29,285 nucleotides of DNA from a virus. Taxonomy: Duplodnaviria; Caudoviricetes. The stretch covers positions 1 through 29,285 of IMG/VR virus record IMGVR_UViG_3300011115_000256; one strand, written 5' to 3'. Position numbers and translations under genes: made by a program. The notes below the pieces were generated by a model, which saw nothing but the letters and a program-made list of their open reading frames with translations, did no database searches and was not told the origin of the DNA. This document shows, one piece after another, positions 558 to 28,668 of this stretch. How positions within the stretch are numbered: the first letter of the stretch is position 1; each line of letters opens with the position of its first letter.

Positions 558-1472
558 TTAAACGCCGGGTGTGCCGTAAACGGCGCGTGGGTCAGTGAAA
601 CCTACTTGGTAACGCTCAGTAGCCTTGTAGCGCATAGAGTCGGTCTCAAAATCACCTTCCATAGTTTTTTCGAGTTTACGACGCATTAGCAACTTCATGC
701 CTTCTGGAGCATCAGTTTGAACCCACCATGCTGTTTGGTTGGTCAAACGAGACAACACAGCCGCACCTTCGTCCAACAAGCCAATAGACTTGACAGGGTT
801 GATGTCGTTGTTGCCTGTACCAGCGCGAAGCACTGATTTCAACAGAACTTCAGCTTGGAAGACATTGCCGGGAGCCACAATCAACTGACGTGGAACCAAA
901 CGAATCTTCTTACCATTGTTGTCCACAGCTTGACGAATTTGAATCAACATCTGTTCGAGAGATGTTTGGCTCAAGTTAGCCGCAGTGGATAACAAATTAC
1001 TGAAAGTACCGTTCACGATTGGGTGAGATGTGCTGTTTAGAGCAACTCCATCACCGCCGGGGTAGCTTGAGTTGAATGCACGATTCAACACGTTAGCTGA
1101 CAACGTCTCTTTAGTCTCAATCAAAGACTGAGCCAAGTGACGAGCGTAAACCTGACCAATACGAATATGGTCGCCATCTTCAACCAACACTTTGGTTAAC
1201 GCGAAGGCTAGGCCATACACGTTATACACATAGCGTTGCAAGAAGAGTACGCCACCTTGCTGATACGAAACAGGAGTTCCGTCAGGCAATTGTGGAGCGG
1301 CTCCAAATCCATAAAGGACTGGTTCTTCGTGGTAATTACGAGGGATACCTTCTTGTTCACGAAAAACTCGTGACCATTCATCGGTACGTTGGTCATAGAC
1401 TCCATCGAAGCATTCGTTAAGAATTGGCTCAACGATACTTCTAAAGTCCGTACTGCGCATTGGAGCGGCCAT
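558..1472 (-). CDS. Major capsid protein (HK97 fold, Mu gpT-like)
   Basis: 304 aa; capsid-like segments (YGLAFALTKVLVED, PRQLIVAP, GDFETDSMRYKATERY, FTDPRAVYG); position after scaffold and before a strong terminator; GGGGGA SD. Confidence 0.88.
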   Translation of the reverse strand: MAAPMRSTDFRSIVEPILNECFDGVYDQRTDEWSRVFREQEGIPRNYHEEPVLYGFGAAPQLPDGTPVSYQQGGVLFLQRYVYNVYGLAFALTKVLVEDGDHIRIGQVYARHLAQSLIETKETLSANVLNRAFNSSYPGGDGVALNSTSHPIVNGTFSNLLSTAANLSQTSLEQMLIQIRQAVDNNGKKIRLVPRQLIVAPGNVFQAEVLLKSVLRAGTGNNDINPVKSIGLLDEGAAVLSRLTNQTAWWVQTDAPEGMKLLMRRKLEKTMEGDFETDSMRYKATERYQVGFTDPRAVYGTPGV

Positions 1473-2087: not shown

Positions 2088-2627
2088 CTACCCAGCAAAA
2101 TGCGGAGCAGGAATTGGTTTGTCAATGTCATTAAGCCCTTCGCCTTCAATCTGACCGAGGCTTCTGCCTCGACTATCACGTCCAACATTTTGCTCTGCCT
2201 GAAGTCGAATTTTGTTCGCCTCCTCAAGCGGTGCATCATGGTGAAAATGAGACATAATTTCTTGATACATATCCATAGGGATTTTGTACAAGAGCATCTC
2301 ATTACACGAGATATAACCTTCATGTTCTCCAGCTTTTACACGGTTATTTCGCATTTGAGGTAACTCATCCGCTTTCACGGGAACGTACCCAAGTCGAATC
2401 CGTTTATCAATGCTGTCGTAACTGTTAGTTGTCGACAACCAGCAAACGTGCCATCCCTTTAATTCAGGAACAGCGGGCAATGCACTTTGTACCCATTCGT
2501 CTTTCCACATCTTGCGACGTTCATCCGACGATGCCATTTTGTCCTCTGGAGCCTCGCGAATCGTGTCGCGACTGCCGCGATTATCGCGGTCTCCAGCATT
2601 CAAATTTTTCTTTAAACGAGAATCCAT
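2088..2627 (-). CDS. Head-module hypothetical protein
   Basis: 179 aa, AAGGAG SD, between scaffold and head genes; motif GWHVCWLST...LGYVPV...EMLLYKIP. Confidence 0.7.
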   Translation of the reverse strand: MDSRLKKNLNAGDRDNRGSRDTIREAPEDKMASSDERRKMWKDEWVQSALPAVPELKGWHVCWLSTTNSYDSIDKRIRLGYVPVKADELPQMRNNRVKAGEHEGYISCNEMLLYKIPMDMYQEIMSHFHHDAPLEEANKIRLQAEQNVGRDSRGRSLGQIEGEGLNDIDKPIPAPHFAG

Positions 2628-2638
2628 TTTATTACTCC

Positions 2639-3613
2639 TTAACCGTTATTGTTGCGTGCTTCTAAGGCGTAGCGTCGAATCATCTTCGCTCGTTTCTCAG
2701 CGTCATCCCACATACCTGCATCTTTCATAGCCCTCACCTGTTCGGGTGACAAGGTAAATGAATTACCTCTACCATTATTCGATGCATATTCGCGGCCTGA
2801 ACTCGTCACTGCACTTCGCGGTCTTGAGCGAGGTTTCTCGTCTGCATCTTCAGTATACCTGTGAGGCACTACTCTTTGCAAGCGTCTATCAAGTTCTTCC
2901 CAATATTCCGCAGTTTTTGGGTCATAACCCTCTTCTGCAAGTATTGAATCTTCGTTGAGAGCGCGTCTAGAATCGGGGTCTTTCCCATTTGGGTCGTACC
3001 ACGGGTTATTTGCCATCCAATTGTTGGCGTGACGCTGTAGCTGTGGGTCTGGAGCCTGAATAGTACGTTGTGCCTGTGGGGCAACAGCGCGTTTCTTCAA
3101 GTTTGCCAAAGCCTCTGCCTGACGACGTGCTTCAAACCACATTTCTTGCGCAGAAGTCAGCAATTCACCGTTACCAGTGCGTGTTGCCTCAGAAATCTTC
3201 TGTTTTGCAAACAAAATGCGATTATCTTGGTCTTCAATTGCCTTATCTAAGCGTGCAAGGTCACTTCCGTGGGACTTGCGCTCTAAAACAGACAATCTTT
3301 CGAGCAATTGTTGGTTCTGACGTTCTAAAAGCGTCAACTTGACGTCTTTTTCTGTCGAAACTTGTTTGTGATACTCCTTACGACGCTGTCTTTTGAGGCG
3401 TTTTTGCTCACGAAGAGCCTCTGCGTCCTCATCTACCGCGCCACCAACCACCATTTCTTTTTGGCGTGCGCGTTCATCAGCTTCATCGGAGTCGTCATCG
3501 TGTTGTGGCTCAGGAGAAGGGATACTTTCGGGCAACTCAATGGTTGCTGAACCGTCTTTTTCTTCCTGAATAACAATAACTTCTTGTTCTGCTACCTGAT
3601 TATCGGTACTCAT
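2639..3613 (-). CDS. Probable capsid scaffolding protein
   Basis: 324 aa; acidic N-terminus, long coiled-coil, WMANNPWY, C-terminal LSPEQVRAMKDAGM helix; typical position between portal and MCP. Confidence 0.7.
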   Translation of the reverse strand: MSTDNQVAEQEVIVIQEEKDGSATIELPESIPSPEPQHDDDSDEADERARQKEMVVGGAVDEDAEALREQKRLKRQRRKEYHKQVSTEKDVKLTLLERQNQQLLERLSVLERKSHGSDLARLDKAIEDQDNRILFAKQKISEATRTGNGELLTSAQEMWFEARRQAEALANLKKRAVAPQAQRTIQAPDPQLQRHANNWMANNPWYDPNGKDPDSRRALNEDSILAEEGYDPKTAEYWEELDRRLQRVVPHRYTEDADEKPRSRPRSAVTSSGREYASNNGRGNSFTLSPEQVRAMKDAGMWDDAEKRAKMIRRYALEARNNNG

Positions 3614-4038
3614 ACGAATGCCCTCACTTCAAGTGGATTTCCAGTAATTCTGGCAATCACTTCGTGGTCATTCAACACCATAAATTCGACGTTTTCGTCG
3701 TCTCCATGCGGAACAACCCATCGGTCGCCAGTCCATTTAGGTACGCGAAGGTAGTCGCCTTCTTTGCACCATATGCCCTCGACCCAAGGTTCCATTGTGT
3801 CGCGCTTTTTAAACGCTAATGGCCCCATCGCTACCACTTTGGCAACGGGATTTTGCGCCCGTTCAGTGTCGCGAGTCTCTTCAGGCAGGATAATCCCCGA
3901 TTGTGTCATTCGTTTCTTGGCTTTGCGCAGTTGTACTAATACTCTTGCACCAAGGGGAATCGCACCGGGGTCTACAAGAGGAAAGGCTTCCTCTAAATCA
4001 GCGGCATTACCCGCTACCGTGCTATCTGTCATCTTCAT
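3610..4038 (-). CDS. groES: GroES/Cpn10-like co-chaperonin
   Basis: PLGARVLVQ, mobile loop TQSGIILPE, VAKVVAMGP, KEGDYL, FMVLNDHEVIARI match the Cpn10 pattern. The start may be the second ATG (4032). Confidence 0.85.
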   Translation of the reverse strand: MKMTDSTVAGNAADLEEAFPLVDPGAIPLGARVLVQLRKAKKRMTQSGIILPEETRDTERAQNPVAKVVAMGPLAFKKRDTMEPWVEGIWCKEGDYLRVPKWTGDRWVVPHGDDENVEFMVLNDHEVIARITGNPLEVRAFV

Positions 4039-4384: not shown

Positions 4385-6898
4385 TCATTCTCCTAAGTTG
4401 CGTTGGGTTTGCTTGTTTAAAGCGATTGCAGTCTTCTCCTGCTCTTGCCGTAGCTTGACCTCATCTACGGTCAATTCTGCGGTCTTAATACGTTCAGTGG
4501 TAAGGTTGTTTTCGGCGTTCATAGCAATCTTGGCCTCCTGCTCTTGTTGGTCTTTTGCCATTTCGGCTTGGAACTTCTGACCATCGAAAGCAAGACGTGC
4601 TTGGTCTGCGGCAGTACGACGTTGTGTTTCTGCCATAGATGCTTGCAATACCGCTTGAGCCTCGCCTTCTAATGGAGGTGGTGGTGGTTTGAACTGTTGC
4701 ATGAGTTGGCCTAATTGCTCTAGTGCAGGCATAACACCTTGGAACACCTGAGCGGAGTCCAAACTAACGTGGTCGGACGCCACCGCAATAGCGCGGTCAA
4801 TTTCTTTAGCAATCTTGCTTTCCTCATATTTGCCCAATTTGACGTCTCCAGCCGCCAAGACGTAACCTTGTACTTGTTGGGTATACCAAAGCATCATGTG
4901 TTGCTTAATATGCTCTAAAGCCTGCGGGATGAACTTAGGCGCAATGAGACGATTTGAGCCTAGCGTTGGGTCAAGCGCAAAGGTTAAGTGCGTTTGGATA
5001 TGCGCCAAATGGTCTTGACGTGGGTAAGCAAATGCTGGCTTGCCTAACGCCATTGCGCTGTTCTCGTCCGCGGCGTTCAACTCTGCGGGTTTACCAGTAT
5101 TTGGCATCAACTCGTTGACGTTGGGGACTTTGAGTTGCTTGAGCATACGGCTTACCACCGCACGTTGGTCAAAAATCTGCGGGAACTGCGCGGACAACTG
5201 CATGACCGACTGCATCTGAGCGACACGTTGTGTCTCAGAGAAGATGTGGGGGTCGGATACAGGAACCACGTCGCTGTTGCGTTTGAAGTCTGAGCGCTTG
5301 ATAGGTAACTCAGCAACAATATCGCCTTTACGTTGCTCATCCAAGTGCCAACGATTGATACGTCCCAGAACGTGCAAAACACGTCTTTGAGCATCATGCA
5401 AACGTGAATGAATAGATGAGAAAACTACGGCTCCCTGCTCAATCAACGCTTGTGTTGTACCTACAGGCATATTGCTATTGGCATCGGCAATTTTTTCCTC
5501 AGCAGTAGTAACTACACCTTTGGCCTGATTAGTCAGCCAACCCAACAACTCAAAAAGTACAGGAGAAGGAGGGTTAAATGGCATAGGCATAGCAATTTTG
5601 CGGATGTCATCCACTCCAATACCGCCTTCAATCTCTGTTACCTGCGTAATTTCAATTTGGTCGGACTGTCCTGAGACCTTTGCACCCTTCAATTTCAACA
5701 TTGTTAGGGAGTTGTTAACGTGCGCAGTGTCCAACAAGGCGCGTAATGCACCCGTAGAGGCGGCAGAAAGACCTCCGATGAGATGAGGTAGCCCAATAGC
5801 ATAAGCGCCTCGCCAAGGAATAAATTTAAACTCAATAATCCAATCCAATTTGGTAAAGGTTTCGTCACCTTCTTCCCAATTACGATATAAACCAACAACT
5901 GAATTGTCAAGTTCGTCAATCATTAGGATATAAGGCGCGGTATCACCCTTAGTACGCTCGTCTTCTTCTAAATCCAACCATGTGTAGATGTGATACACGC
6001 GACGTAAACCGTCTTCACCGTCTTGGAATTGTTTGCCTTCAATCTTGGCGTTGGCTTTCTCCGCCGCAGTTTGCTCTGGTTCTGACGTAGTGCGAATAAA
6101 ATTGATGTCGCGGTATAAGCCACGGTCAATACGTTGTTTAAATTCCCATTCGCTGATGTCCTGCTGTTCTGTTACACGCTGTGAGGTGTAAAAGTTGGCT
6201 GACGCGAAAGGGAGCAGGATGTTGTCAATGGCAACGAACTCAGCGCACGGTCTACGCTTCTTATCGTCGAACCACAGTTTCATAAACTGTGAACCACCCA
6301 ACGGCAATTGGGTCAGCATTTGCTCCTGCTCGTCCCTAAACTCTTCAATCTGTTCGGTTAATTGCCAATTCATGTAGTCGCGCTTACGCTCTGCAACTTC
6401 AGTCTTTTCGTCTGTAACCTCGCCAATAATCTTAGTCTTGGCTGGGCCATCTGGCGGAAACATTTCTTTGATTGCGCGAGAGGCAAAGTCTACACAGGCC
6501 TCTGCCATCATTGGGTGTACTACTTTGGAGGCTCCGAGAAACTGAGCGCCGCCGGGGGCATCATCGCCCATACCCGTCCTACGCAAACCCTCTTCATATT
6601 GCTTGTCACGCTTCTTTCGTGCTTGGCGGTCATTGTCAAGTAGTTCGATGTATCGCATAGCTAAAGAATCTAACTCACGCACGCTGATAACTTCCTCAGC
6701 CAAATTGGCATAAAAGTCTTCGTCTTCTGCTGGGCCTTTGAAGTCTGCAAGACTTACAACAGCGGAACCGTCAGGCAACTCCTCAACATCAGGTTCTTCG
6801 CCGGGGAGCATATCAACCTCAGCACCTCCCTCTTCAGTCATGCGTATACCTTCAATAAAGCGGTCTTGGTTAGGGCCAATTGGGTAATCTGTTGCCAT
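4385..6898 (-). CDS. Portal protein (P22-like, long C-terminal coiled-coil)
   Basis: 837 aa; GASKVVHPMMAEACVDF, FPPDGPAKT, YMNWQLTEQI, LPLGGSQFMK, PVGTTQALIEQG; Gln-rich coiled tail; lies in the packaging/head module. Confidence 0.85.
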   Translation of the reverse strand: MATDYPIGPNQDRFIEGIRMTEEGGAEVDMLPGEEPDVEELPDGSAVVSLADFKGPAEDEDFYANLAEEVISVRELDSLAMRYIELLDNDRQARKKRDKQYEEGLRRTGMGDDAPGGAQFLGASKVVHPMMAEACVDFASRAIKEMFPPDGPAKTKIIGEVTDEKTEVAERKRDYMNWQLTEQIEEFRDEQEQMLTQLPLGGSQFMKLWFDDKKRRPCAEFVAIDNILLPFASANFYTSQRVTEQQDISEWEFKQRIDRGLYRDINFIRTTSEPEQTAAEKANAKIEGKQFQDGEDGLRRVYHIYTWLDLEEDERTKGDTAPYILMIDELDNSVVGLYRNWEEGDETFTKLDWIIEFKFIPWRGAYAIGLPHLIGGLSAASTGALRALLDTAHVNNSLTMLKLKGAKVSGQSDQIEITQVTEIEGGIGVDDIRKIAMPMPFNPPSPVLFELLGWLTNQAKGVVTTAEEKIADANSNMPVGTTQALIEQGAVVFSSIHSRLHDAQRRVLHVLGRINRWHLDEQRKGDIVAELPIKRSDFKRNSDVVPVSDPHIFSETQRVAQMQSVMQLSAQFPQIFDQRAVVSRMLKQLKVPNVNELMPNTGKPAELNAADENSAMALGKPAFAYPRQDHLAHIQTHLTFALDPTLGSNRLIAPKFIPQALEHIKQHMMLWYTQQVQGYVLAAGDVKLGKYEESKIAKEIDRAIAVASDHVSLDSAQVFQGVMPALEQLGQLMQQFKPPPPPLEGEAQAVLQASMAETQRRTAADQARLAFDGQKFQAEMAKDQQEQEAKIAMNAENNLTTERIKTAELTVDEVKLRQEQEKTAIALNKQTQRNLGE

Positions 6899-6908
6899 GT
6901 TTTAATCC

Positions 6909-9900
6909 TTATCTTGCCATAGCGGACAATCCGCCTTGTTGTTTTTTGGGTTCCTGTTTAGCAGGCTTTGCTCCACTAATCTTCTTGATACCCTTCTTAA
7001 TTAATCCTGCTGGCATAAGAACTCCAGCAACAGTCTCGGCTATAGGAAACTCATTTTCCCCAACCATACCTACCTTACGCATAGCATCAATGTATTGCTC
7101 ACTACCAAACCAAGGCTTTTCGGACGACAGATTAGTATCAGCAAGGGCGTCAACCCCCATCAATCCTAAGTTCAATAAGTCAGGAATTCCGCCAAGGTAT
7201 TGAGCGCCAGTGCGTAAAGCAAAGTCCTTTACACCTCGTGGTGACTTGAGTTGGCTGGCTTCGTCTTTGACGTTTTGCTTTTCCCACTCGTAAACTTCTG
7301 GCGCATTACGCTTCATGTTCTCCCAATCTTTTTCCGTCAGCAGTGGCTCACGTCGTGAGCCTTCCGTCATAGGAGTCATCTCAGGGAAGGCAATACCACC
7401 ACCGTCAAAGTGTTGGGCGTCTTTAAATTGAAGCGTCTTGAATGCCGCACCACCTTCAGCGTATATGTCTGGCAATTCAATTTCGGAACGCTGAATTTTT
7501 TTATCAAAAACGGAATTGTTCTTGACATTTTTCTTAGCCCATTCATATATTTCTGGTGCGGTTTGTTTTAATTCTTCCAAACTAGGCACATCAAACTTTT
7601 CTGGCAACACCATATTGTTAGTCATGGCAAGTTCTTTTTTCAAAGCATCTATATATTCTTCTTGAGAGCGACGAGGAAAAGGTTCGCGTAATTCAGCACG
7701 CGGTAGCAATTGAATTAAATTTGCATCTTCACCTGCGCTTGCCAACGCTCTATTACGATGGCGACCTTCATGTCCAGAAATAAAAGGTGTTAGGGGCAAT
7801 CCCTGCTCTCCTTTATTTATTTCAAGATAAGGCACGCTTTCAAAACCTCCAGAGATATTGCGTAAATAATTAACATACTCATCAGTTGGTAAATCATCTT
7901 TGTACAACTCTCCTGATTTTATTCTGTCTTCTAAACTTGCATAGGCAGGTTTGTGTTTACTTGGTTTTAATGGTGCGGCATAATTTTCAAAGTCCGCAGG
8001 GTTTATAGTCATTAATGCTCTAGCATTGTCACCAATAAAAGCACTCCTAAGCGCTTCTTCTTGATACATTTTCTCTAGATTAGGTATTTCATCAGACGCA
8101 CGCTCAACACGTCTTGCGCCGTACTCACCCTCACGCTTGCGAGCGGCCTCTTTTACATTACTGAGTTTGCTAGGAATGATAATAGAAGGCGCTTCTATTG
8201 TTTGTATTTTTGGCTCTTCCAATAATTTCTTGCCAACCTTAGACAAGCCTTTAACTATCTTACCGCCATCAGATTTATTAAGGTCAGGCTCGTTAATGTC
8301 GTAGGTTCCACGGTTGCCAGTAGCGCTCTTGACCGCGTTAGGTCTATAGGAAACCACCTCGTTTAGGTCATCACCACGATACTGCATGATGCCGTCGTAT
8401 CCTTGGGATTGCGCTCTAGATTGAATTTGCTTACCAATATTTCCTTTTTCTTCATAAGCACGCTCTACCAATCGCATAGCGCTTTCCTCATCCATGCCTA
8501 GTTTTATTAGCGCCTCAGCCGCTGGGTCAATGTTTCTTCCTGTCTGACCAATGATGAGGGGATTGCGTAACTGCGCATGGACTGGCAACATATTGCCACC
8601 CTCTTGCTCTGGTAGCAGTTCTCCTGTTTTGCGTTGGGTAAGCGCGTTTAATCCTGTATCTTGGTAATACTTGCTTGCCAACATTGCGTCAATTGCTTCG
8701 TCATTTGGAATGTTACTGTATCCGCTTGCGTGAGCCGTGTTAGGAGTAAGGTATACACCAGAGCCTAACGCGCCCTCTTTGCTTGGCTTAATGCGTCGAA
8801 TGGCCTCATTACCCTTGCCGCCTTCAGTTGCTGTTGTACCGTGGTACAAACGCATAGGCGTCTTGCTTGGCTCTAGAAACTTCTGTAAGTTTGCTTCGCG
8901 CTCTACCGCTGGCAGAGTATTGTCTGTCATTAGTTTCTTAGCTATTTTGCCAAGGCCACCAACAATCTTGCCGCCGTCAGCCTTAGTAATGTCCTTCTCT
9001 TTAGTATCGTAAGTTCCGCGATTACCAATAGCTGATTTAATTTTTTCAGGCTCAAACATAATGATTTCATGTGGGTCGCCACGTCCCCAAGGGTCAGCGA
9101 ATATGATGCTGTCATAATCCTTACGAACTTCATCAGCCCAACGCTTTGGCAATAACTCAGGAAACTCCCTACTTCCGCCAGCGTAAACATCCTGCGCCCA
9201 ACCCAACATATCTTTATCGTCAAGCACCATAGGGTTAGTAACCTGCGCATGGACAGGCATAACCTGAACGCCAAAATTTGGCATTCTTGGGTCACCTATG
9301 TTATGCGCGGCTGGTTGAAATGTAGGGTCGGACGATAGCCAAATAGCCTCACCGCTCATCATTGGGTCATTGCCGCCTAGCTTGAACTCTTTAAAGTCGG
9401 ATGGGGTTGCATGATACAACCGCTCCTTGTATCGACTTGGGCTTAGAAATTTTTCTTTGTTGGCCTGTCTTTCAGCTTCGGGCAATACGTCATTAGCCAT
9501 TAGTTTTTTGAGAACTTTTTTTGCACCTTTAACTATTTTACCGCCGTCTGCCATAAACTCTAGCTTCTTAAAGGCTCCGCCACCCTCGGCTTTGTTAATG
9601 TCGGACTCACCAAGGTCATAAGTACCTCGATTGCCTATAGCAGACTTAATCCTGTTAGGGTCGTAAATACCAAGGTTCTTAGTCCCTCGTTCACGCGTGT
9701 AGAAAGAATCAAAGCCTATGTCTTTTAACACGTCTTGAAATTGTTGGTTTTCAATTCTTCCCCAATTGTTTTCATCTTTAGGTAAATCATCGACTTTTCG
9801 GTTGAACCTATGCAAGTCCATAGACCGCTCAGAAGATGTAATATGTGGGTCATAAAACTCTGACTCAGGGTTGTGAAACATATCAAGGTAAGTTGCTTTG

Positions 9901-11699
9901 ACCTTCTGTAAATGCTCAGGATTGTCAAAATCAAATGGTCTTTCTACTTGCGCATAGACAGGATATGTAGTCGGTGCTTTACCTTCATCAGTATATCCCC
10001 AAACAGAAAAATCTTTGGAAAATTCTGGCTCAGGAGATAGGAACACAGCGTCACGTTCATCAGCATAGTGACCTGTCATATTATCTTCGTTGGTCAAGTC
10101 TTTCCTAGTCTTAAACTCTGTAATGTTTGGCTCTTTACTGCCGTGATACATCCTACGTTTTTCTGCTGATGGGGCGAGAAACTTTTGAAGGTTAGCCTCA
10201 CGTTCTGCTTGGGGCAATACATTGTTATCAGCAAACAACTTCTTACCAATCTTACCTAAGCCCTTGACTAACTTACCGCCATCTGCCATAAATTCAATCT
10301 TCTTGAAGCCAGTTGCTCCGCCTTCAGCCATTCCCATACGAGCATTGATAGCGGCCTCTAATCGAGCGTCAGCCGCCTCGATGTCAACTGAGCCACCTTT
10401 AGCCATACGCTTCTCAATTGCGGCGGCTAGGCGTGCATCAGCGGCGTCTATGTCGACACTACCACCATCTTTGTATTCGCCTTCCTTAATTCTGCGCTCA
10501 GTAGCAAGGCGTTGCTCCATCAACCTATTAAGCCATTCATCATCAGCATACTGAATTGGGTGGGCGCGTGAGAAGGAGTAGTAGTCGCCAGACTCTGGCT
10601 GACTCAACAAACGTCGAGCGTCAAAGTGGGATTGAAATATGTCTTTGTAGTCTGCGGGTACATCCAACCTACCAGCAACTTTGCCAGCCATTGCGGAGGG
10701 GTAGTCGGATGGAATGTTCGGGTTCTCAATAATGCGTCCTGTGGCATCCATGCGTGCTAACCTAAAGCCAGCCTGATTGGTAGGTACGTCAAGCAACTCA
10801 GGCTCAATGATGGCCTTACGAGTAGCAGGCACATCAGGAAAGCCCATTGATTGGAAGTTCTCTTTACCCATTACTCCAAACAGTTTGGTACGAGCAATGC
10901 CGTTGCTCTTGTCAAGCAACATGGCTTGCGCTTCAGGGCTACGAATCCCCGGCCAATTTGGAATAGGTGCAAACTCCTTAGTCCCTTCCTTCATTGCTCG
11001 GTCAAACTCGCGCTCCGCCTTCTTTGAAATTTTGCTATAAGGTATCTGTTGAAGTAGGGCGTTAGCACCCATTACGTTAAAGTCAGTGTTTGTACCAGAG
11101 CCTGCGGTGTAGATACCATAAACAGGGCGACCACCTTCTCCTGCGCGACCAGCTTGCTTTCCTAACGCAGTTGTACGACCAACACCAGACTCCCATGCGG
11201 CAGACAAATCAGGGTCAATGTGGTTGTAGTTGGCATCCATGTACAGCGGCCCAGCCGTCAGCCTGACAGGCGTCTCTAGTTCATTCTCCCCAACATGGGT
11301 TAGGTACTTGCCGCCAGCGGCTCGGTCACCAACAAGGGGAAACAGCGCCGCCTCTTCCTTTACCAACTGCTCTGGGGTGATGATGCCAATTTCTGGGGGA
11401 TTGAATTTAGGGTCACGCACGGTTGTAGCGTGCATACCATGAGTTGGTTTGGATAACTTGAGGCCACCACCTATTGGGTGATACAGGCCAAGCGCCTCGT
11501 TGGCTTTCTTACTTCGAGCAGGAAGGTTTGCCATTTGCTCTGCAACCTTTGCATCCTTGGCGGCACGGATAGCGGCTTCTTGCTCGTGGGCGGTACGTCC
11601 TGCGGTTCGTATTGCACTCAAGGCTCCTTCGTCGTTTGGAGCCGTCAAGCGCTTACCTATATTACCTAGACCACCTACAATTTTCTTTGCGTCTGCCAT
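6909..11699 (-). CDS. Large polyvalent multi-domain protein: unknown N-terminal domain, three ADP-ribosyltransferase-like (ART-PolyVal-type) domains, ParB-like domain, C-terminal helical tail
   Basis: Three copies of YH[G/A]...[FWY]L[ST]...PV[YH]AQ[VL]..P...[FY]D[SG]...KSA.GNRGTYD; GHEGRHR motif in the fourth module; modules separated by repeated xxDGGK[IL]VxG linkers. Confidence 0.75.
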   Translation of the reverse strand: MADAKKIVGGLGNIGKRLTAPNDEGALSAIRTAGRTAHEQEAAIRAAKDAKVAEQMANLPARSKKANEALGLYHPIGGGLKLSKPTHGMHATTVRDPKFNPPEIGIITPEQLVKEEAALFPLVGDRAAGGKYLTHVGENELETPVRLTAGPLYMDANYNHIDPDLSAAWESGVGRTTALGKQAGRAGEGGRPVYGIYTAGSGTNTDFNVMGANALLQQIPYSKISKKAEREFDRAMKEGTKEFAPIPNWPGIRSPEAQAMLLDKSNGIARTKLFGVMGKENFQSMGFPDVPATRKAIIEPELLDVPTNQAGFRLARMDATGRIIENPNIPSDYPSAMAGKVAGRLDVPADYKDIFQSHFDARRLLSQPESGDYYSFSRAHPIQYADDEWLNRLMEQRLATERRIKEGEYKDGGSVDIDAADARLAAAIEKRMAKGGSVDIEAADARLEAAINARMGMAEGGATGFKKIEFMADGGKLVKGLGKIGKKLFADNNVLPQAEREANLQKFLAPSAEKRRMYHGSKEPNITEFKTRKDLTNEDNMTGHYADERDAVFLSPEPEFSKDFSVWGYTDEGKAPTTYPVYAQVERPFDFDNPEHLQKVKATYLDMFHNPESEFYDPHITSSERSMDLHRFNRKVDDLPKDENNWGRIENQQFQDVLKDIGFDSFYTRERGTKNLGIYDPNRIKSAIGNRGTYDLGESDINKAEGGGAFKKLEFMADGGKIVKGAKKVLKKLMANDVLPEAERQANKEKFLSPSRYKERLYHATPSDFKEFKLGGNDPMMSGEAIWLSSDPTFQPAAHNIGDPRMPNFGVQVMPVHAQVTNPMVLDDKDMLGWAQDVYAGGSREFPELLPKRWADEVRKDYDSIIFADPWGRGDPHEIIMFEPEKIKSAIGNRGTYDTKEKDITKADGGKIVGGLGKIAKKLMTDNTLPAVEREANLQKFLEPSKTPMRLYHGTTATEGGKGNEAIRRIKPSKEGALGSGVYLTPNTAHASGYSNIPNDEAIDAMLASKYYQDTGLNALTQRKTGELLPEQEGGNMLPVHAQLRNPLIIGQTGRNIDPAAEALIKLGMDEESAMRLVERAYEEKGNIGKQIQSRAQSQGYDGIMQYRGDDLNEVVSYRPNAVKSATGNRGTYDINEPDLNKSDGGKIVKGLSKVGKKLLEEPKIQTIEAPSIIIPSKLSNVKEAARKREGEYGARRVERASDEIPNLEKMYQEEALRSAFIGDNARALMTINPADFENYAAPLKPSKHKPAYASLEDRIKSGELYKDDLPTDEYVNYLRNISGGFESVPYLEINKGEQGLPLTPFISGHEGRHRNRALASAGEDANLIQLLPRAELREPFPRRSQEEYIDALKKELAMTNNMVLPEKFDVPSLEELKQTAPEIYEWAKKNVKNNSVFDKKIQRSEIELPDIYAEGGAAFKTLQFKDAQHFDGGGIAFPEMTPMTEGSRREPLLTEKDWENMKRNAPEVYEWEKQNVKDEASQLKSPRGVKDFALRTGAQYLGGIPDLLNLGLMGVDALADTNLSSEKPWFGSEQYIDAMRKVGMVGENEFPIAETVAGVLMPAGLIKKGIKKISGAKPAKQEPKKQQGGLSAMAR
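10335..10475 (-). repeat. 69-bp (23-aa) tandem duplication in polyprotein linker
   Basis: YKDGGSVDIDAADARLAAAIEKR / MAKGGSVDIEAADARLEAAINAR; equivalent Gly codons at 10461 and 10392 are 69 bp apart. Confidence 0.85.
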
Positions 11700-11701
11700 A
11701 G

Positions 11702-13120
11702 TTACACCGCGTAAGGGTTGACTCGCTCTTTGCGAGTATAAGCATAATCATCATCATCGTCATCATAGCGCGGCTCAGGGTTAATGTCGAGGAATCCCAT
11801 ATCTTTCATTAAGCGAATCGCTTGTGTTGCGCTATCCACATAGTCGTCATGCGTCGAGTCAGGGAACGAGCATATTTGGCTGAGGAACCCTTCGCACCAA
11901 TCCTTCACATAGCCCTTGCGTTGGCTCGACTCTGGGAGCCAGACACGCCCTGTTGCGAAGATAGAAGCCGTTATCTGGAGCCTCTGCATCTTGTCAGCTT
12001 TGCCCGGGTTATACCCTCGCACAGGCAAGTGAGCCGCACGAAGTTCTTGAATCAGGGAGATACCCGCCGCCTTGTCCTCGACCAAGATAAGGTCAGGGCG
12101 CTTGGCCTCCTTCCCTTCGCCATAAGATACGCGCCATTCCTCTAGCACCTTGGGCTTGAGTAAGGGGAAGGTTAGGTGTTCAGCCCAACAGTCGATGAGA
12201 AGAACGGACATAGGGCCGTCCATAGGCTTGAATACGCCCCATGTCGTCATAGCAGTAGGGTCGTTGTACTCCTTATCGCTGAAGGCGCAGTCATAGGATT
12301 GGACTATGAACTCAAACTTAGGGAATGGTTTATCGTGCGGGTACAGCTTGAACATATCGCGAGATACAACCTTACCGTCTTCGAGGTCGACAATCTCCCC
12401 CATGACTTCCTGCTGATACAGCTTGCTACCCTTGTACTGCTCCAACTGCTGTCTAAAGGATGAGGCTAGGTTCTGCTCGTTCTCGTAGGTACTAGCGCGG
12501 TCGATGACCACGTCCTCACCTTCGCGCCCTACTAGGTCTAGTATCAAGTCCTTGGGGCGCGGCGTCGTTGTCACAATGACACGCGGCTTGTCACCCAAAC
12601 GTAAGCCCATCATCATCATATCCCACGCCTCACCAGAGCCAAGGTATTGGAAGGCCGCTAACTCATCGCACCAAGCGAAGTGGAACTGAGGCCCTCGTAG
12701 CCGCTCGTAGGAGTCGCCAGAAATGCCGCGAATGATAGACCCATTGGATAGCTTAATCTGATGGTCTTGCTTGTTGTAGTCCACCACGAGTTCGGTAGGG
12801 ATACAAGCCAATAGGCCACTCTGTCCCTCGAAGCAGGTGAACTTAATATCATTCGACGTGGGCGCGAGGACTAAGCACCTAGACTCAGGGTGAGTCCATG
12901 CCCACCACCATAGAGCCTCGGCGGCACTACGGGTTTTCCCTGCCCCTCGACCAGCGAGCATCATCCATACGGTGTAGTCGTAGGCCAACGGCGGAGGTAT
13001 TTGGTATCTATGGGCGCTCGCTACCCAAGTAGCGTGAGCAATCTGTGCAATACGGTCATGGTCGGCCTGAGCGTTGAACTCCGCCTGCGTCTCTGGGTCA
13101 GCAAGCAACTCAGCCAGCAC
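11702..13120 (-). CDS. terL: Terminase large subunit
   Basis: Walker A AGRGAGKT, Walker B AWCDE, motif III TTTP, LRGPQF, nuclease QSYDCA and HDDYVDS; GTG start overlapping the terS stop. Confidence 0.95.
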   Translation of the reverse strand: MLAELLADPETQAEFNAQADHDRIAQIAHATWVASAHRYQIPPPLAYDYTVWMMLAGRGAGKTRSAAEALWWWAWTHPESRCLVLAPTSNDIKFTCFEGQSGLLACIPTELVVDYNKQDHQIKLSNGSIIRGISGDSYERLRGPQFHFAWCDELAAFQYLGSGEAWDMMMMGLRLGDKPRVIVTTTPRPKDLILDLVGREGEDVVIDRASTYENEQNLASSFRQQLEQYKGSKLYQQEVMGEIVDLEDGKVVSRDMFKLYPHDKPFPKFEFIVQSYDCAFSDKEYNDPTAMTTWGVFKPMDGPMSVLLIDCWAEHLTFPLLKPKVLEEWRVSYGEGKEAKRPDLILVEDKAAGISLIQELRAAHLPVRGYNPGKADKMQRLQITASIFATGRVWLPESSQRKGYVKDWCEGFLSQICSFPDSTHDDYVDSATQAIRLMKDMGFLDINPEPRYDDDDDDYAYTRKERVNPYAV

Positions 13121-15649: not shown

Positions 15650-15713
15650 AGTTTAACACCACATTAAACAATGTCAACACTTTTATTAAAATATTTACTA
15701 GGTACTTTCCCTA
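15650..15713 (-). promoter_or_regulatory. Early promoter cassette copy 2
   Basis: TAGGGAAAGTACCTA box, AT tract, TTGACA-16 nt-TAAACT with extended -10 TG. Confidence 0.8.
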
Positions 15714-16754
15714 ACCCACAAATTCGTGACTGTAACACAACCTTTCTGCATGAGACAGCCTGTAATTTTGGTTTGTCCATTTCTTTTGACTCTTTGAGTC
15801 CCCTCGTACTTTTTGGTTTTTGCTGGTAGGTTTCCACAATGGTGAGTTGTTGCGATACTCACCCAAACGCGGCGACGAAGACTTGCTGAAGTACCTACCC
15901 CCCTCCGCCCTCACCATCATGCCCATAGCGTCCGATATACGAACGCCCATACCCAACCCTTGGAACTCAGGCAACACTACTGTCCTATGGCCTCTCCATG
16001 CGTTCTGAAGGGTTCCGCTTGGCATTGGTATCACAGCGGCAAATCCAATTGCTGTATTTTCCCATTTGGCAACCCAACAGCGTGCAGAGCGATTGATGTT
16101 TGCTGTGAGATAGTGATGCTTGCTGAATAGCGCCCATGCCCCAACGGTAGACGGTACGAGTTCCAACTCAATAGTTGGTCGCCTTTCTACCCCCCTTGTT
16201 GACAGCACGCCAACCGTTGTGTCAAACACCCAATCTGGTTGGAGCCACTCAACAATGTCGTAGTGGCAAGTAGCAAACACAATGTTTTTGAGTCCTTCTT
16301 TACGAACATACCTTGATGTAGCGTAAGAACACGACTTTGCCACGTTACGGTCAACCACCGACGTAAACTCGTCAATCACCGCGCCATCAACTAAACGACG
16401 CGCAAGGTCTGCACGAAAACGCTCACCAGTTGATAGCACATGATATGGCTTGACCCATACAGGCACAGAGTTTAGGCCAACCGCACCCAATCGCGTCATG
16501 GCCTCCTCTGCGCTATTGAAATGAGAGCATATAGACTTGTTGACAACCCAATCAATTTGACGTTCATTACCAAACTGAGCAAGCAACGTAGACTTGCCTG
16601 AGCCTGATGGGCCAACAATCAAACCAATTTGAAAGTCAAGCGGCGCTTTTAATACTGGCACGTCAAACGTACTGTTTCCATCAAACTCAAAGTCAAACGA
16701 CTTAGCGCATTCAATCGTTATGTTGTCCAACTCTACCGTTGATTTAAGTTGCAT
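15711..16754 (-). CDS. ABC-type ATPase fused to GNAT (Mom-like) acetyltransferase
   Basis: Walker A GPSGSGKST, ABC signature LSTGE, Walker B AVIDEF, H-loop ATCH; C-terminal FSKHHYL and acetyl-CoA motif RTVVLPEFQGLGMG. No transmembrane partner nearby. Confidence 0.85.
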   Translation of the reverse strand: MQLKSTVELDNITIECAKSFDFEFDGNSTFDVPVLKAPLDFQIGLIVGPSGSGKSTLLAQFGNERQIDWVVNKSICSHFNSAEEAMTRLGAVGLNSVPVWVKPYHVLSTGERFRADLARRLVDGAVIDEFTSVVDRNVAKSCSYATSRYVRKEGLKNIVFATCHYDIVEWLQPDWVFDTTVGVLSTRGVERRPTIELELVPSTVGAWALFSKHHYLTANINRSARCWVAKWENTAIGFAAVIPMPSGTLQNAWRGHRTVVLPEFQGLGMGVRISDAMGMMVRAEGGRYFSKSSSPRLGEYRNNSPLWKPTSKNQKVRGDSKSQKKWTNQNYRLSHAERLCYSHEFVG

Positions 16755-26955: not shown

Positions 26956-28668
26956 TTATTCTTGTGGCGGTCTCAGCAGGCGTTTTCCTAACTCATAAGC
27001 ACCTAAACCTAGCCCACCAATTACGCCAGCGCCGCGTACCTTAGTCGCGGCCTTACCTGCTGGGGGAACCATAGCCGCTGTAGCCGCGCCAGCCTCTAAA
27101 GCCTTTAAAACGGCTTCGCTAGTGTCACCAGCTTTATAACGCTCTAAGGCTTCTTGATAACTCATTACGCCAAGGTATCCTGCGCCAGCACCGACAGTTG
27201 CTCTTGGCAAAGCGCCCATCTTAGTAGAGGCTACGCCAGCACCTTCAAGCACGCGCCCTGCGGCGTTTGGCTGTTGTTGCGCACGCTCTAACTTACGTTT
27301 GGCCATTTCTGCGTCAGTCTCAGCTTTGGTAAGTGCTTTTTGTAGAGGAGCCGCACCCTTTACTTGCGAAGTAATAATGTTGTGCTGACTTCCTTGAGTC
27401 GCACGTTCTTGACGAATGCGGTCTAATTCAGCTTGAAGTCTTGCGCGTTCTTGCTCTTGTTGCTGTGCAAGGATGGCTTGTTGATTTCTGTTGGCCTCAT
27501 TACGCTGTGCAATTTCTTCGTTTCTTGGGTCTGCTATTTCTGGGGGTAGATAGAGTTCGCCGGGGCCTTTTTCTCCAGTAAGACTAAAGTCCTGCAATCC
27601 TAAATTCTCGGCTCGTGCTTTACCCTTATTGAACAAGTCAATAATGTCGTGAGCGCCTCTTCCATGTCCTTCACCACGAGTCATATCAATAGCTTGATTT
27701 GCCAAGTTAAAAGGCACGCGCTCACTAGCCATAGCCTGCACAGTGTTGTAAGGCGCACCCGCGCCAGCAATCTTTCTAGACTCAACCTGTACTTGGTCTG
27801 GAGAAACTTCTGTTGGGGGCGATGGATTGGGTATCCCTTTAAGCCTAGCCTCAAGTAATGCTTGTTCGTTTTTAATACGATTCAGTTCGTCTTGGCTTTG
27901 GTTATAAAGGTCGTTCAGATTTTCAATACCCTGTGGTGCGGCTTTTTGTAAATTGGCACGCGCTAGTTCTATCTTGTCTTTGGCGGTAAGGTTGGCTTCT
28001 TCTGCTTTACCTGTGTCAACCTTTGGAGATATTCTTGGGTCAGTAAACGCAGGCAAGAGTGCATTGACTCCAGCACCAATAATTGCCCCTGCTTCAGGAG
28101 CGTTTACTCCACCCTGTTTGTCTTCTGGATTTACTTCTTTATTACTGTCTATTTGTTCTTGATTTTTTTTAAATTTAGATGACTCAGACTCATAAGTTTC
28201 AAAAACGCTTGGTTCTTTTACCTCTGTAATTTCTGGGTCTTTGTATAGATTAGACGTAATTTTATGTGCGTTACGAATAGCCTTCTCATAGTTTTCGTCT
28301 TCAGCGTAGGAGCCTTTTACTCCATTGCGTAAGCCTTCTGCGTATTTAGTTACATCTGTGCCAGAGTTTAAAGTTTGCGGATACAGACGACGCATCATAT
28401 GAGCGTAGTAATCCCCAAAAGCCTCTGGACTTTCAAAGTTTACATACTTGTCCTTGGACTTAGTCTTATTGTCAATAGCCTCAGTGCCTGAGCCAGACAT
28501 ATCTTTGATGTTACCAAAGTTAAAATGACCAACAGGACTACGTCCGTAGTTAGACTCCATACCCCATTGAGCCAAAAGAACTGAAGGCGCAATACCAGTT
28601 TGCTTGCTTACTTGCACAGCAATTGGTGAATACTCTTCAATGAACATCTTTACATGGTCATTTGCCAT
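26956..28668 (-). CDS. Probable ejection/internal virion protein with N-terminal GH73 (FlgJ-like) peptidoglycan hydrolase domain
   Basis: GIAPSVLLAQWGMESNYG, FNFGNIK, YVNFES, SYAEDENY; coiled-coils and Gly/Ala-rich hydrophobic C-terminal helices. Confidence 0.8.
   Translation of the reverse strand: MANDHVKMFIEEYSPIAVQVSKQTGIAPSVLLAQWGMESNYGRSPVGHFNFGNIKDMSGSGTEAIDNKTKSKDKYVNFESPEAFGDYYAHMMRRLYPQTLNSGTDVTKYAEGLRNGVKGSYAEDENYEKAIRNAHKITSNLYKDPEITEVKEPSVFETYESESSKFKKNQEQIDSNKEVNPEDKQGGVNAPEAGAIIGAGVNALLPAFTDPRISPKVDTGKAEEANLTAKDKIELARANLQKAAPQGIENLNDLYNQSQDELNRIKNEQALLEARLKGIPNPSPPTEVSPDQVQVESRKIAGAGAPYNTVQAMASERVPFNLANQAIDMTRGEGHGRGAHDIIDLFNKGKARAENLGLQDFSLTGEKGPGELYLPPEIADPRNEEIAQRNEANRNQQAILAQQQEQERARLQAELDRIRQERATQGSQHNIITSQVKGAAPLQKALTKAETDAEMAKRKLERAQQQPNAAGRVLEGAGVASTKMGALPRATVGAGAGYLGVMSYQEALERYKAGDTSEAVLKALEAGAATAAMVPPAGKAATKVRGAGVIGGLGLGAYELGKRLLRPPQE

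Follow-up and report, generated by a model that had tools for sequence, protein, structure and literature searches.

Phage-type polyvalent proteins have been described as single polypeptides that carry 2-15 functionally unrelated domains (Iyer et al. 2017, PMC5512222; Iyer et al. 2022, PMC9503650). According to the description of T4 in PMC9026906, one protease both fragments the core and trims the cargo. The T5 tail protein pb2 is cleaved after R1127 (PMC10038345), and a 2025 lambda paper (PMC12617516) gives the catalyst of tape-measure cleavage as unknown. The choice of the proteins that a phage loads into its head and the activity that cuts tape-measure proteins are open questions in the field.

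The window, the whole stretch of 29,285 nucleotides (29 kb) analysed here, is a fragment of an uncultured tailed phage (labelled G000), in which a 1596-aa open reading frame at 6909-11699 on the minus strand sits between the terminase large subunit gene (terL) and the portal gene. The late operon runs in the order terS, terL, 1596-aa ORF, portal, GroES-like gene, probable scaffold, two small head proteins, and capsid, and a 99%-identical contig (L001) holds the same 1596-aa frame. The head-module genes around the 1596-aa ORF are as follows:

11702..13120, minus strand: terminase large subunit (terL; Pfam Terminase_6N/6C), flanking the cargo gene.
4385..6898, minus strand: portal (phrog_1216, E 8.8e-23); the GG joint defined below is at background in the portal family.
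2639..3613, minus strand: probable scaffold, assigned by position and coiled-coil character; MVVGG at aa 54-58, MAxGG in many relatives.
2088..2627, minus strand: conserved 179-aa head-module protein; N-terminal LxAGG in the family, LNAGD in the window copy.
558..1472, minus strand: major capsid protein, with one conserved YQQGG at aa 70.

This phage group is common, since an estimated ~1500 IMG/VR stretches match its portal patterns, and relatives of it have been cultured on Roseobacter, Pelagibacter, and Caulobacter. By portal identity, the nearest of these are Caulobacter phage RW (48%), Roseobacter phages CRP-901/902 (34%), and Pelagibacter phages HTVC023P/027P (29-32%). Complete relatives of 53-56 kb encode a tail adaptor, a DNA-ejection protein, and a lytic internal protein, from which we infer a short-tailed virion for the window phage. 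No close solved structure was found by sequence for the capsid or the portal.

A preliminary description of this DNA reported that the N-terminal leader of the 1596-aa protein recurs four times internally, and this was confirmed: the copies start at aa 471, 716, 906, and 1142 (positions 10289, 9554, 8984, and 8276), and 9-14 of 18 residues are common to each other and to the N-terminus. The leader itself had been taken as the repeat unit. The repeat consists, however, of two separate parts, a GG joint and a basic amphipathic leader helix, and the most conserved element is the shorter and more frequent joint, five residues of the form [M/F/Y/K]-A/K-x-G-G that are often followed by x-V. The natural N-terminus lacks the joint motif. 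Counted with the pattern [MFYK][AKSQDN]xGG, the joint matched the window protein 12 times, against a mean of 0.87 and a maximum of 7 in 10,000 shuffles; 11 of the 12 matches lie in linkers or at the C-terminus, and one lies inside the second ADP-ribosyltransferase module (ART2, aa 772). The 103 non-redundant relatives contain 475 joints versus 67 expected, and in linkers the joint often stands in tandem with no leader behind it. The resulting layout of the protein is as follows:

6909..11699, minus strand: modular cargo polyprotein, by its tested features a phage-type polyvalent protein (1596 aa).
11646..11699, minus strand: N-terminal basic amphipathic leader, aa 1-18, with no GG joint ahead.
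10476..11645, minus strand: N-module, aa 19-408, with a confident structure model; a stand-alone gene in CRP-901-type phages.
10290..10475, minus strand: linker 1, with three tandem joints (YKDGG at aa 409, MAKGG at 432, MAEGG at 457).
9594..10289, minus strand: MADGG joint, leader, and ART-PolyVal module 1, aa 471-702.
9555..9593, minus strand: linker 2, aa 703-715, with joint KAEGG.
8985..9554, minus strand: MADGG joint, leader, and ART-PolyVal module 2, aa 716-905; the motif match at aa 772 is off-boundary.
8277..8984, minus strand: KADGG joint, leader, and ART-PolyVal module 3, aa 906-1141 (E 5.5e-13).
7464..8276, minus strand: KSDGG joint, leader, and probable ParB/sulfiredoxin-like module, aa 1142-1412 (GHEGRHR).
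7410..7463, minus strand: linker, aa 1413-1430, with joint YAEGG.
6945..7409, minus strand: joint-like FDGGG and C-module of an unnamed family, aa 1431-1585.
6912..6944, minus strand: C-terminal joint-like KQQGG and a 6-residue tail.

The three ART domains proposed earlier were recovered, as Pfam ART-PolyVal (PF18760) matches three stretches (E 2.7e-37). The signature of this Tox-ART-HYD2-like family is His on strand 1, Tyr on strand 2, and Asp on strand 5; His and Asp are present in all three modules, and with strands assigned by alignment alone, the strand-2 aromatic is Phe in ART1, Trp in ART2, and Tyr in ART3. The motif LPxxERxANxxKFLxPS, formerly counted as part of the tag, forms the opening of the ART module. 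The closest relative of ART1 is 73% identical and comes from a phage with a terL identity of only 59%, and in a quick tree each of the three ARTs has its own separate nearest relatives. Tandem duplication of one ART is not favoured, as each groups with modules of other phages and the starred branches of the quick tree force three origins.

The fourth module with an internal leader, earlier called ParB-like, is a probable ParB/sulfiredoxin-like domain judging from its conserved GHEGRHR, the active-site motif of that superfamily being G-x-H-R, and from an Atlas score of 0.85 to ParB_N/sulfiredoxin, a family or clan common to 8 of the 10 best named matches. It gave no Pfam and no PDB profile match, and the assignment is a lead only. 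The structure of the N-module was predicted with a pLDDT of 80.6 and had no Foldseek match; its six best VIA rows were all YTH/EVE (PUA-like) proteins (Z 5.2-6.3, rmsd 3.3-4.2, 120-141 residues), values below the usual trust level, and the model thus bears only a weak resemblance to YTH/EVE readers. The previously assumed five-module layout overlooked a sixth module (aa 1431-1585), which is 60-82% identical in 9 of 20 close relatives, the near-identical L001 excluded. The last GG lies within 15 aa of the protein end in 33 of 103 proteins. Cargo families among the relatives include ART-PolyVal, PcfJ, LPD23, ParB_N, GDSL, DUF7178, and L5 gp82-like, and most of the 108 module-cluster representatives had no Pfam match.

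With six modules, the hallmark ART-PolyVal, its place as a phage late gene between portal and terminase, and LPD23 and PcfJ in relatives, the 1596-aa protein is by the sequence features tested a phage-type polyvalent protein. It resembles this class, as described in PMC5512222 and PMC9503650, in its unrelated enzymatic domains, its position beside terminase and portal, its predicted packaging and injection, and the processing that has been proposed. Unlike the class as described there, the window protein shows no match to MuF or zincin MPTase, the proposed self-processing enzyme, and its modules are delimited by a peptide joint plus leader. A variable effector gene adjoining the portal has also been described for MuF polymorphic toxins (Jamet et al. 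2017, PMC5576092). Neither Pfam nor PHROGs gave a MuF match in the window protein or the 108 module representatives. Window-type proteins hold up to six modules in any order, unlike MuF polymorphic toxins, which carry one C-terminal toxin. The polyvalent class and ARTs beside terminase and portal are already described, so the "undescribed system" claimed earlier is limited to the junction code, of which no description was found in the open-access literature searched; the contrast between fused and split cargo was likewise not found described there. The present analysis adds a test of where the joints lie, their register with the natural start of the protein, a split lineage at background for the joint, and a domain that co-occurs with it, all presented below.

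Variation in architecture and swapping of modules at the linkers were supported. Among 157 loci fetched by terL or portal, 104 hold both genes (some are repeats of one contig), and the largest ORF between the two ranges from 443 to 2393 aa. The window and 20 phages that match it at no less than 82% in terL and 83% in portal gave 21 different module strings for 21 proteins of 989 to 1631 aa, which is an upper figure because the splitting relied on the joint motif itself and over-splits some ARTs. A fixed architecture was not seen. With boundaries taken from BLAST here and in the position test, 71 of 168 homology breakpoints, which are not independent events, fell within 10 aa of a joint (11% expected), as did 59 of 93 DNA block ends, repeated contigs included, within 60 nt (19% expected). 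A putative host-takeover arsenal is reshuffled between genomes whose terminase and portal are more than 90% identical. Identity to the window differs between terL and portal in L030 (93/84), L082 (83/92), L084 (83/91), and L033 (92/84), which suggests that crossovers inside the cargo gene reassort its flanks.

DNA-level repeats had been thought to drive these swaps, and this part of the proposal was not supported. The linker pair quoted for its DNA likeness does belong to one family (D5), but conservation of the protein accounts for the likeness: 48 of 117 codons are identical versus 44.4 expected, and the longest exact stretch common to linkers is 12 nt. Joint and leader are conserved at the protein level, synonymous sites are saturated, and the DNA repeat as the selected unit was rejected because codon identity is no higher than codon usage predicts. 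The same figures bear on the view, implied by the DNA-repeat idea, that joint and leader are mere remnants of gene starts that became fused and flexible spacers at which recombination takes place. Breakpoints do cluster at joints, as this view expects, and linkers would be tolerated crossover sites in any multidomain gene; nevertheless, it is very improbable, given that conservation is confined to the protein level and that the joint also occurs in cassette-free proteins.

The T5 site offers a different reading of the joint. In AY692264 the pb2 site reads FVPR|AEGGMM, and the 92 residues behind it (1219-1127) equal the pb2C length given in PMC12617516. Like the T5 site, the window joints have a large residue ahead of A-x-G-G and lie at domain boundaries. 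In T5 pb2, whose cleavage yields pb2* and pb2C (Linares et al. 2023, PMC10038345), the cut directly precedes A-E-G-G, and a small GE-containing segment comes after it; pb2, however, is a siphophage tail protein with one site and Arg at P1, whereas the window has about ten predicted sites in a head-module cargo with M, K, Y, or F at P1. Arg, the P1 residue of the T5 site, is not enriched before the joint in window-type proteins (1.1-fold). The masses published for lambda gpH agree better with the Gly-rich stretch 709-720 than with FATGG 733-737. A cut after GG, as made by the adenovirus and ASFV proteases, was dropped because the T5 cut precedes AxGG.

The position of the joint also fits a cut. 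None of 103 natural N-termini bears a joint, and a module at the N-terminus of one phage's protein begins with M-A-D-x-x-K and a helix, without a joint. When modules that are N-terminal elsewhere occur as internal copies, a joint lies within 15 aa of the projected start in 43 of 72 cases (11% expected). The natural N-terminus would lose its Met, and a T5-like cut would produce A-D-G-G-K-L-V-K-G-L, in register with the natural Met-less start A-D-A-K-K-I-V-G-G-L. In 80 CRP-901-type loci, the joint is at background (81 versus 68 expected), and the cargo homologues are stand-alone single-module genes in 16 of 16 cases (356-553 aa), 15 of them without a joint and many with amphipathic leaders; most CRP records are fragments, and only three are at least 62% complete.

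The joint is not confined to the cargo. Observed versus expected counts were 867 versus 78 in a Lys/Gly-rich protein, 87 versus 11 in the MPSKS protein, and 45 versus 4 in the scaffold (45 of 117 family members), and the joint was also found in two ejection proteins; portal (10 versus 16), terL (2 versus 14), and adaptor (0 versus 6) were at background. In the capsid protein, YQQGG is kept in 90 of 90 copies, and a C-terminal FDxGG is present in 12 of 16 DnaB proteins. Matches in capsid, in DnaB, and inside ART2 must be spared or due to chance, as not all can be cut. In HTVC023P-type loci (L413-L492), the joint count was 167 versus 60 expected, yet no cargo module was detected; HTVC023P itself has joints in small basic proteins and in ejection-region proteins, and its joint-bearing proteins include gp30, gp32, gp82, and gp83. 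Two genes after the capsid gene of the complete relative G001 (L159:10656-11837) is a Lys/Gly/Met-rich protein of 390-460 aa, which consists for the most part of 10-13 joints, ends in GG-x-C, and is likely to be a fragmenting core or a DNA-binding internal protein.

This distribution resembles the substrate list of T4 gp21, T4 being compared by its description in PMC9026906. The system there is also alike in having a shared N-terminal tag on diverse cargo (the internal proteins), a virion-delivered ART (Alt), and one motif across scaffold and cargo. In contrast, T4 cargo is encoded by separate genes and a known prohead protease cleaves its tag off behind Glu, while the window tag would be exposed instead. 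The T4 combination of CTS and gp21, a prohead protease cutting after Glu, was not found in the window phage or G001: the joint has no fixed Glu, and no prohead protease family was detected among the scanned G001 and window proteins. By analogy, the window system would work like T4 targeting plus maturation without being a member of it.

Since the joints match the mapped T5 cut and leader copies mostly stand behind them, we hold with moderate confidence, from sequence comparisons, that the polyprotein is packed in the virion and cut into leader-tagged effectors; cutting is favoured by the position test, the T5 cut site, the joint-less split lineage, and the joint distribution across late proteins. 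The cargo protein would be made late, with terminase and portal, and recruited into the prohead, the leader helix being a likely packaging or ejection tag. A cut at each [M/F/Y/K]|A-x-G-G joint during assembly would then release separate enzymes, most of them starting with a leader, and the cutter would be the same activity as for T5 pb2. The products would be ejected with the DNA, the ART modules could ADP-ribosylate host targets, and the ParB-like module may act on nucleotides or DNA. The locus would thereby work as a cassette array, because a leader-starting gene fused behind a joint would keep its free N-terminus.

Cutting might also take place with a different role for the leader, as an ejection or membrane-translocation signal, or might occur after injection or by a host protease. 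Basic amphipathic helices would suit membrane contact, a 1973 T5 paper points by its title to host involvement in tail-protein cleavage, and Iyer 2017 (PMC5512222) allows for post-injection processing. Against these variants, the T5 and lambda tape measures are cleaved during tail assembly according to PMC10038345 and PMC12617516, and the joint is also present in the scaffold, which would not be injected; we consider them quite unlikely.

The leader was assessed by a moment-and-charge criterion. The amphipathic and basic fraction was 0.48 for N-termini, 0.28 after internal joints, and 0.38 for CRP cargo N-termini, against 0.09-0.11 in controls; only 28% of post-joint segments therefore pass, and the CRP leaders lack a net basic charge. 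The leader is not an integral helix of the ART fold, as had been argued already, because at least five unrelated module clusters have it in front and stand-alone genes begin with it too. In the cultured Roseobacter phage CRP-902, four hypothetical genes in gp63-gp72 (L325:23270-29406), gp66, gp68, and gp72 among them, start with a common MANP(V/I)K amphipathic leader, which is a candidate for a natural capsid-targeting sequence.

The best candidate for the cutter in the favoured model is a small D..DGE domain, which co-occurs with the joint and is our candidate reader of it. It makes up the last ~90 residues of the largest ejection protein (L244:6001-6327 in G001), has an invariant D, D-G-E, K, and R, and begins with a degenerate joint. 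In Caulobacter phage RW, a single MARGG stands ahead of the domain in gp066c. Absent from the window fragment, it is present in 25 of 25 clade records, 4 of 10 HTVC023P-type records (the four largest, with weak E), and 0 of 14 CRP-type records. Among 13 genomes, several partly fetched, it occurs in 6 of 6 joint-rich ones and in three with few strict joints (RW, HTVC023P, and Pag-Yong1) and is absent from the other four, a correlation that rests on about three lineages. The domain matches the tape-measure segment behind YAxGG (8zdo, E 7.5e-6) and 14,643 representative proteins at E <= 1e-3, tape measures included; T5 pb2 and gpH were not detected with the A2 profile. Its structure model had a pLDDT of 50.7 and was unusable for the fold. 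That the D..DGE domain is an undescribed protease cutting before A-x-G-G, namely the T5/lambda tape-measure catalyst, generalised here with the leader as a portable capsid-loading tag, is unlikely. The 179-aa head protein was rejected as the protease, as it has no PDB match and its homologues are present in joint-less CRP phages.

The D..DGE domain may equally be a portal-binding anchor: among named Atlas clusters, crAss cargo protein 1 comes closest to it (0.84, a lead only), and residues 425-552 of crAss gp45 form a compact domain that binds the portal wing, as described in PMC10172136. This would suit a role of the joint as an uncut docking peptide for a prohead receptor (D..DGE domain, portal, or scaffold), with recruitment by avidity and ejection of the whole polyprotein, and the degenerate joint at the start of the domain points the same way. 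The tandem joints and the disordered protein with 10-13 copies also fit multivalent binding, and an M15 endolysin was the sole representative of a known protease family detected in G001. Docking, however, leaves the lack of joints at natural N-termini unexplained, does not account for leaders behind the joint in register with the natural start or for a joint-less lineage that has split genes only, and has to contend with a T5 site that is a mapped cut; we consider it rather unlikely.

For the questions of head loading and tape-measure cleavage alike, the locus offers testable sequence rules: it predicts which bond would be cut, proposes a tag and a reader domain as candidates, and comes with a natural joint-less control lineage whose cargo genes are separate. 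A short portable loading tag, if true, would be a useful tool for protein delivery in bacteria.

Several further features of these genomes were observed. The reader domain occurs as two tandem half-copies in L494:8091-8684 (MW202675, a 197-aa stand-alone protein) and L328:10075-11994, which hints that it works as a dimer. It also lies inside open frames of 3022 aa and 2673 aa (G047:C1:39527-39820 and G048:C1:50042-50299), and thus the ejection protein too has become very large in some relatives. As its lytic domain, the last ejection protein carries a glucosaminidase in the window (26956-28668) and an SLT transglycosylase in G001 (L158:2783-4663), and the C-terminal ends of the two proteins are alike. 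G001 also carries a beta-ketoacyl-synthase-like gene (Pfam E 7e-15) beside an acyl-carrier-like gene (PHROG E 3e-4) at L158:12313-14362; together with a 148-aa gene they directly precede the ejection genes, and they may serve to acylate proteins of the virion. An ABC-type ATPase fused to a GNAT-like domain is encoded at 15711-16754 of the window (phrog_11143, E 3e-112). Finally, a phage GroES-like co-chaperonin gene (window 3610-4038) always lies between portal and scaffold in the window clade, and the same place is kept in the CRP, HTVC023P, RW, DSL-LC04, QDWS535, and Pag-Yong1 records.
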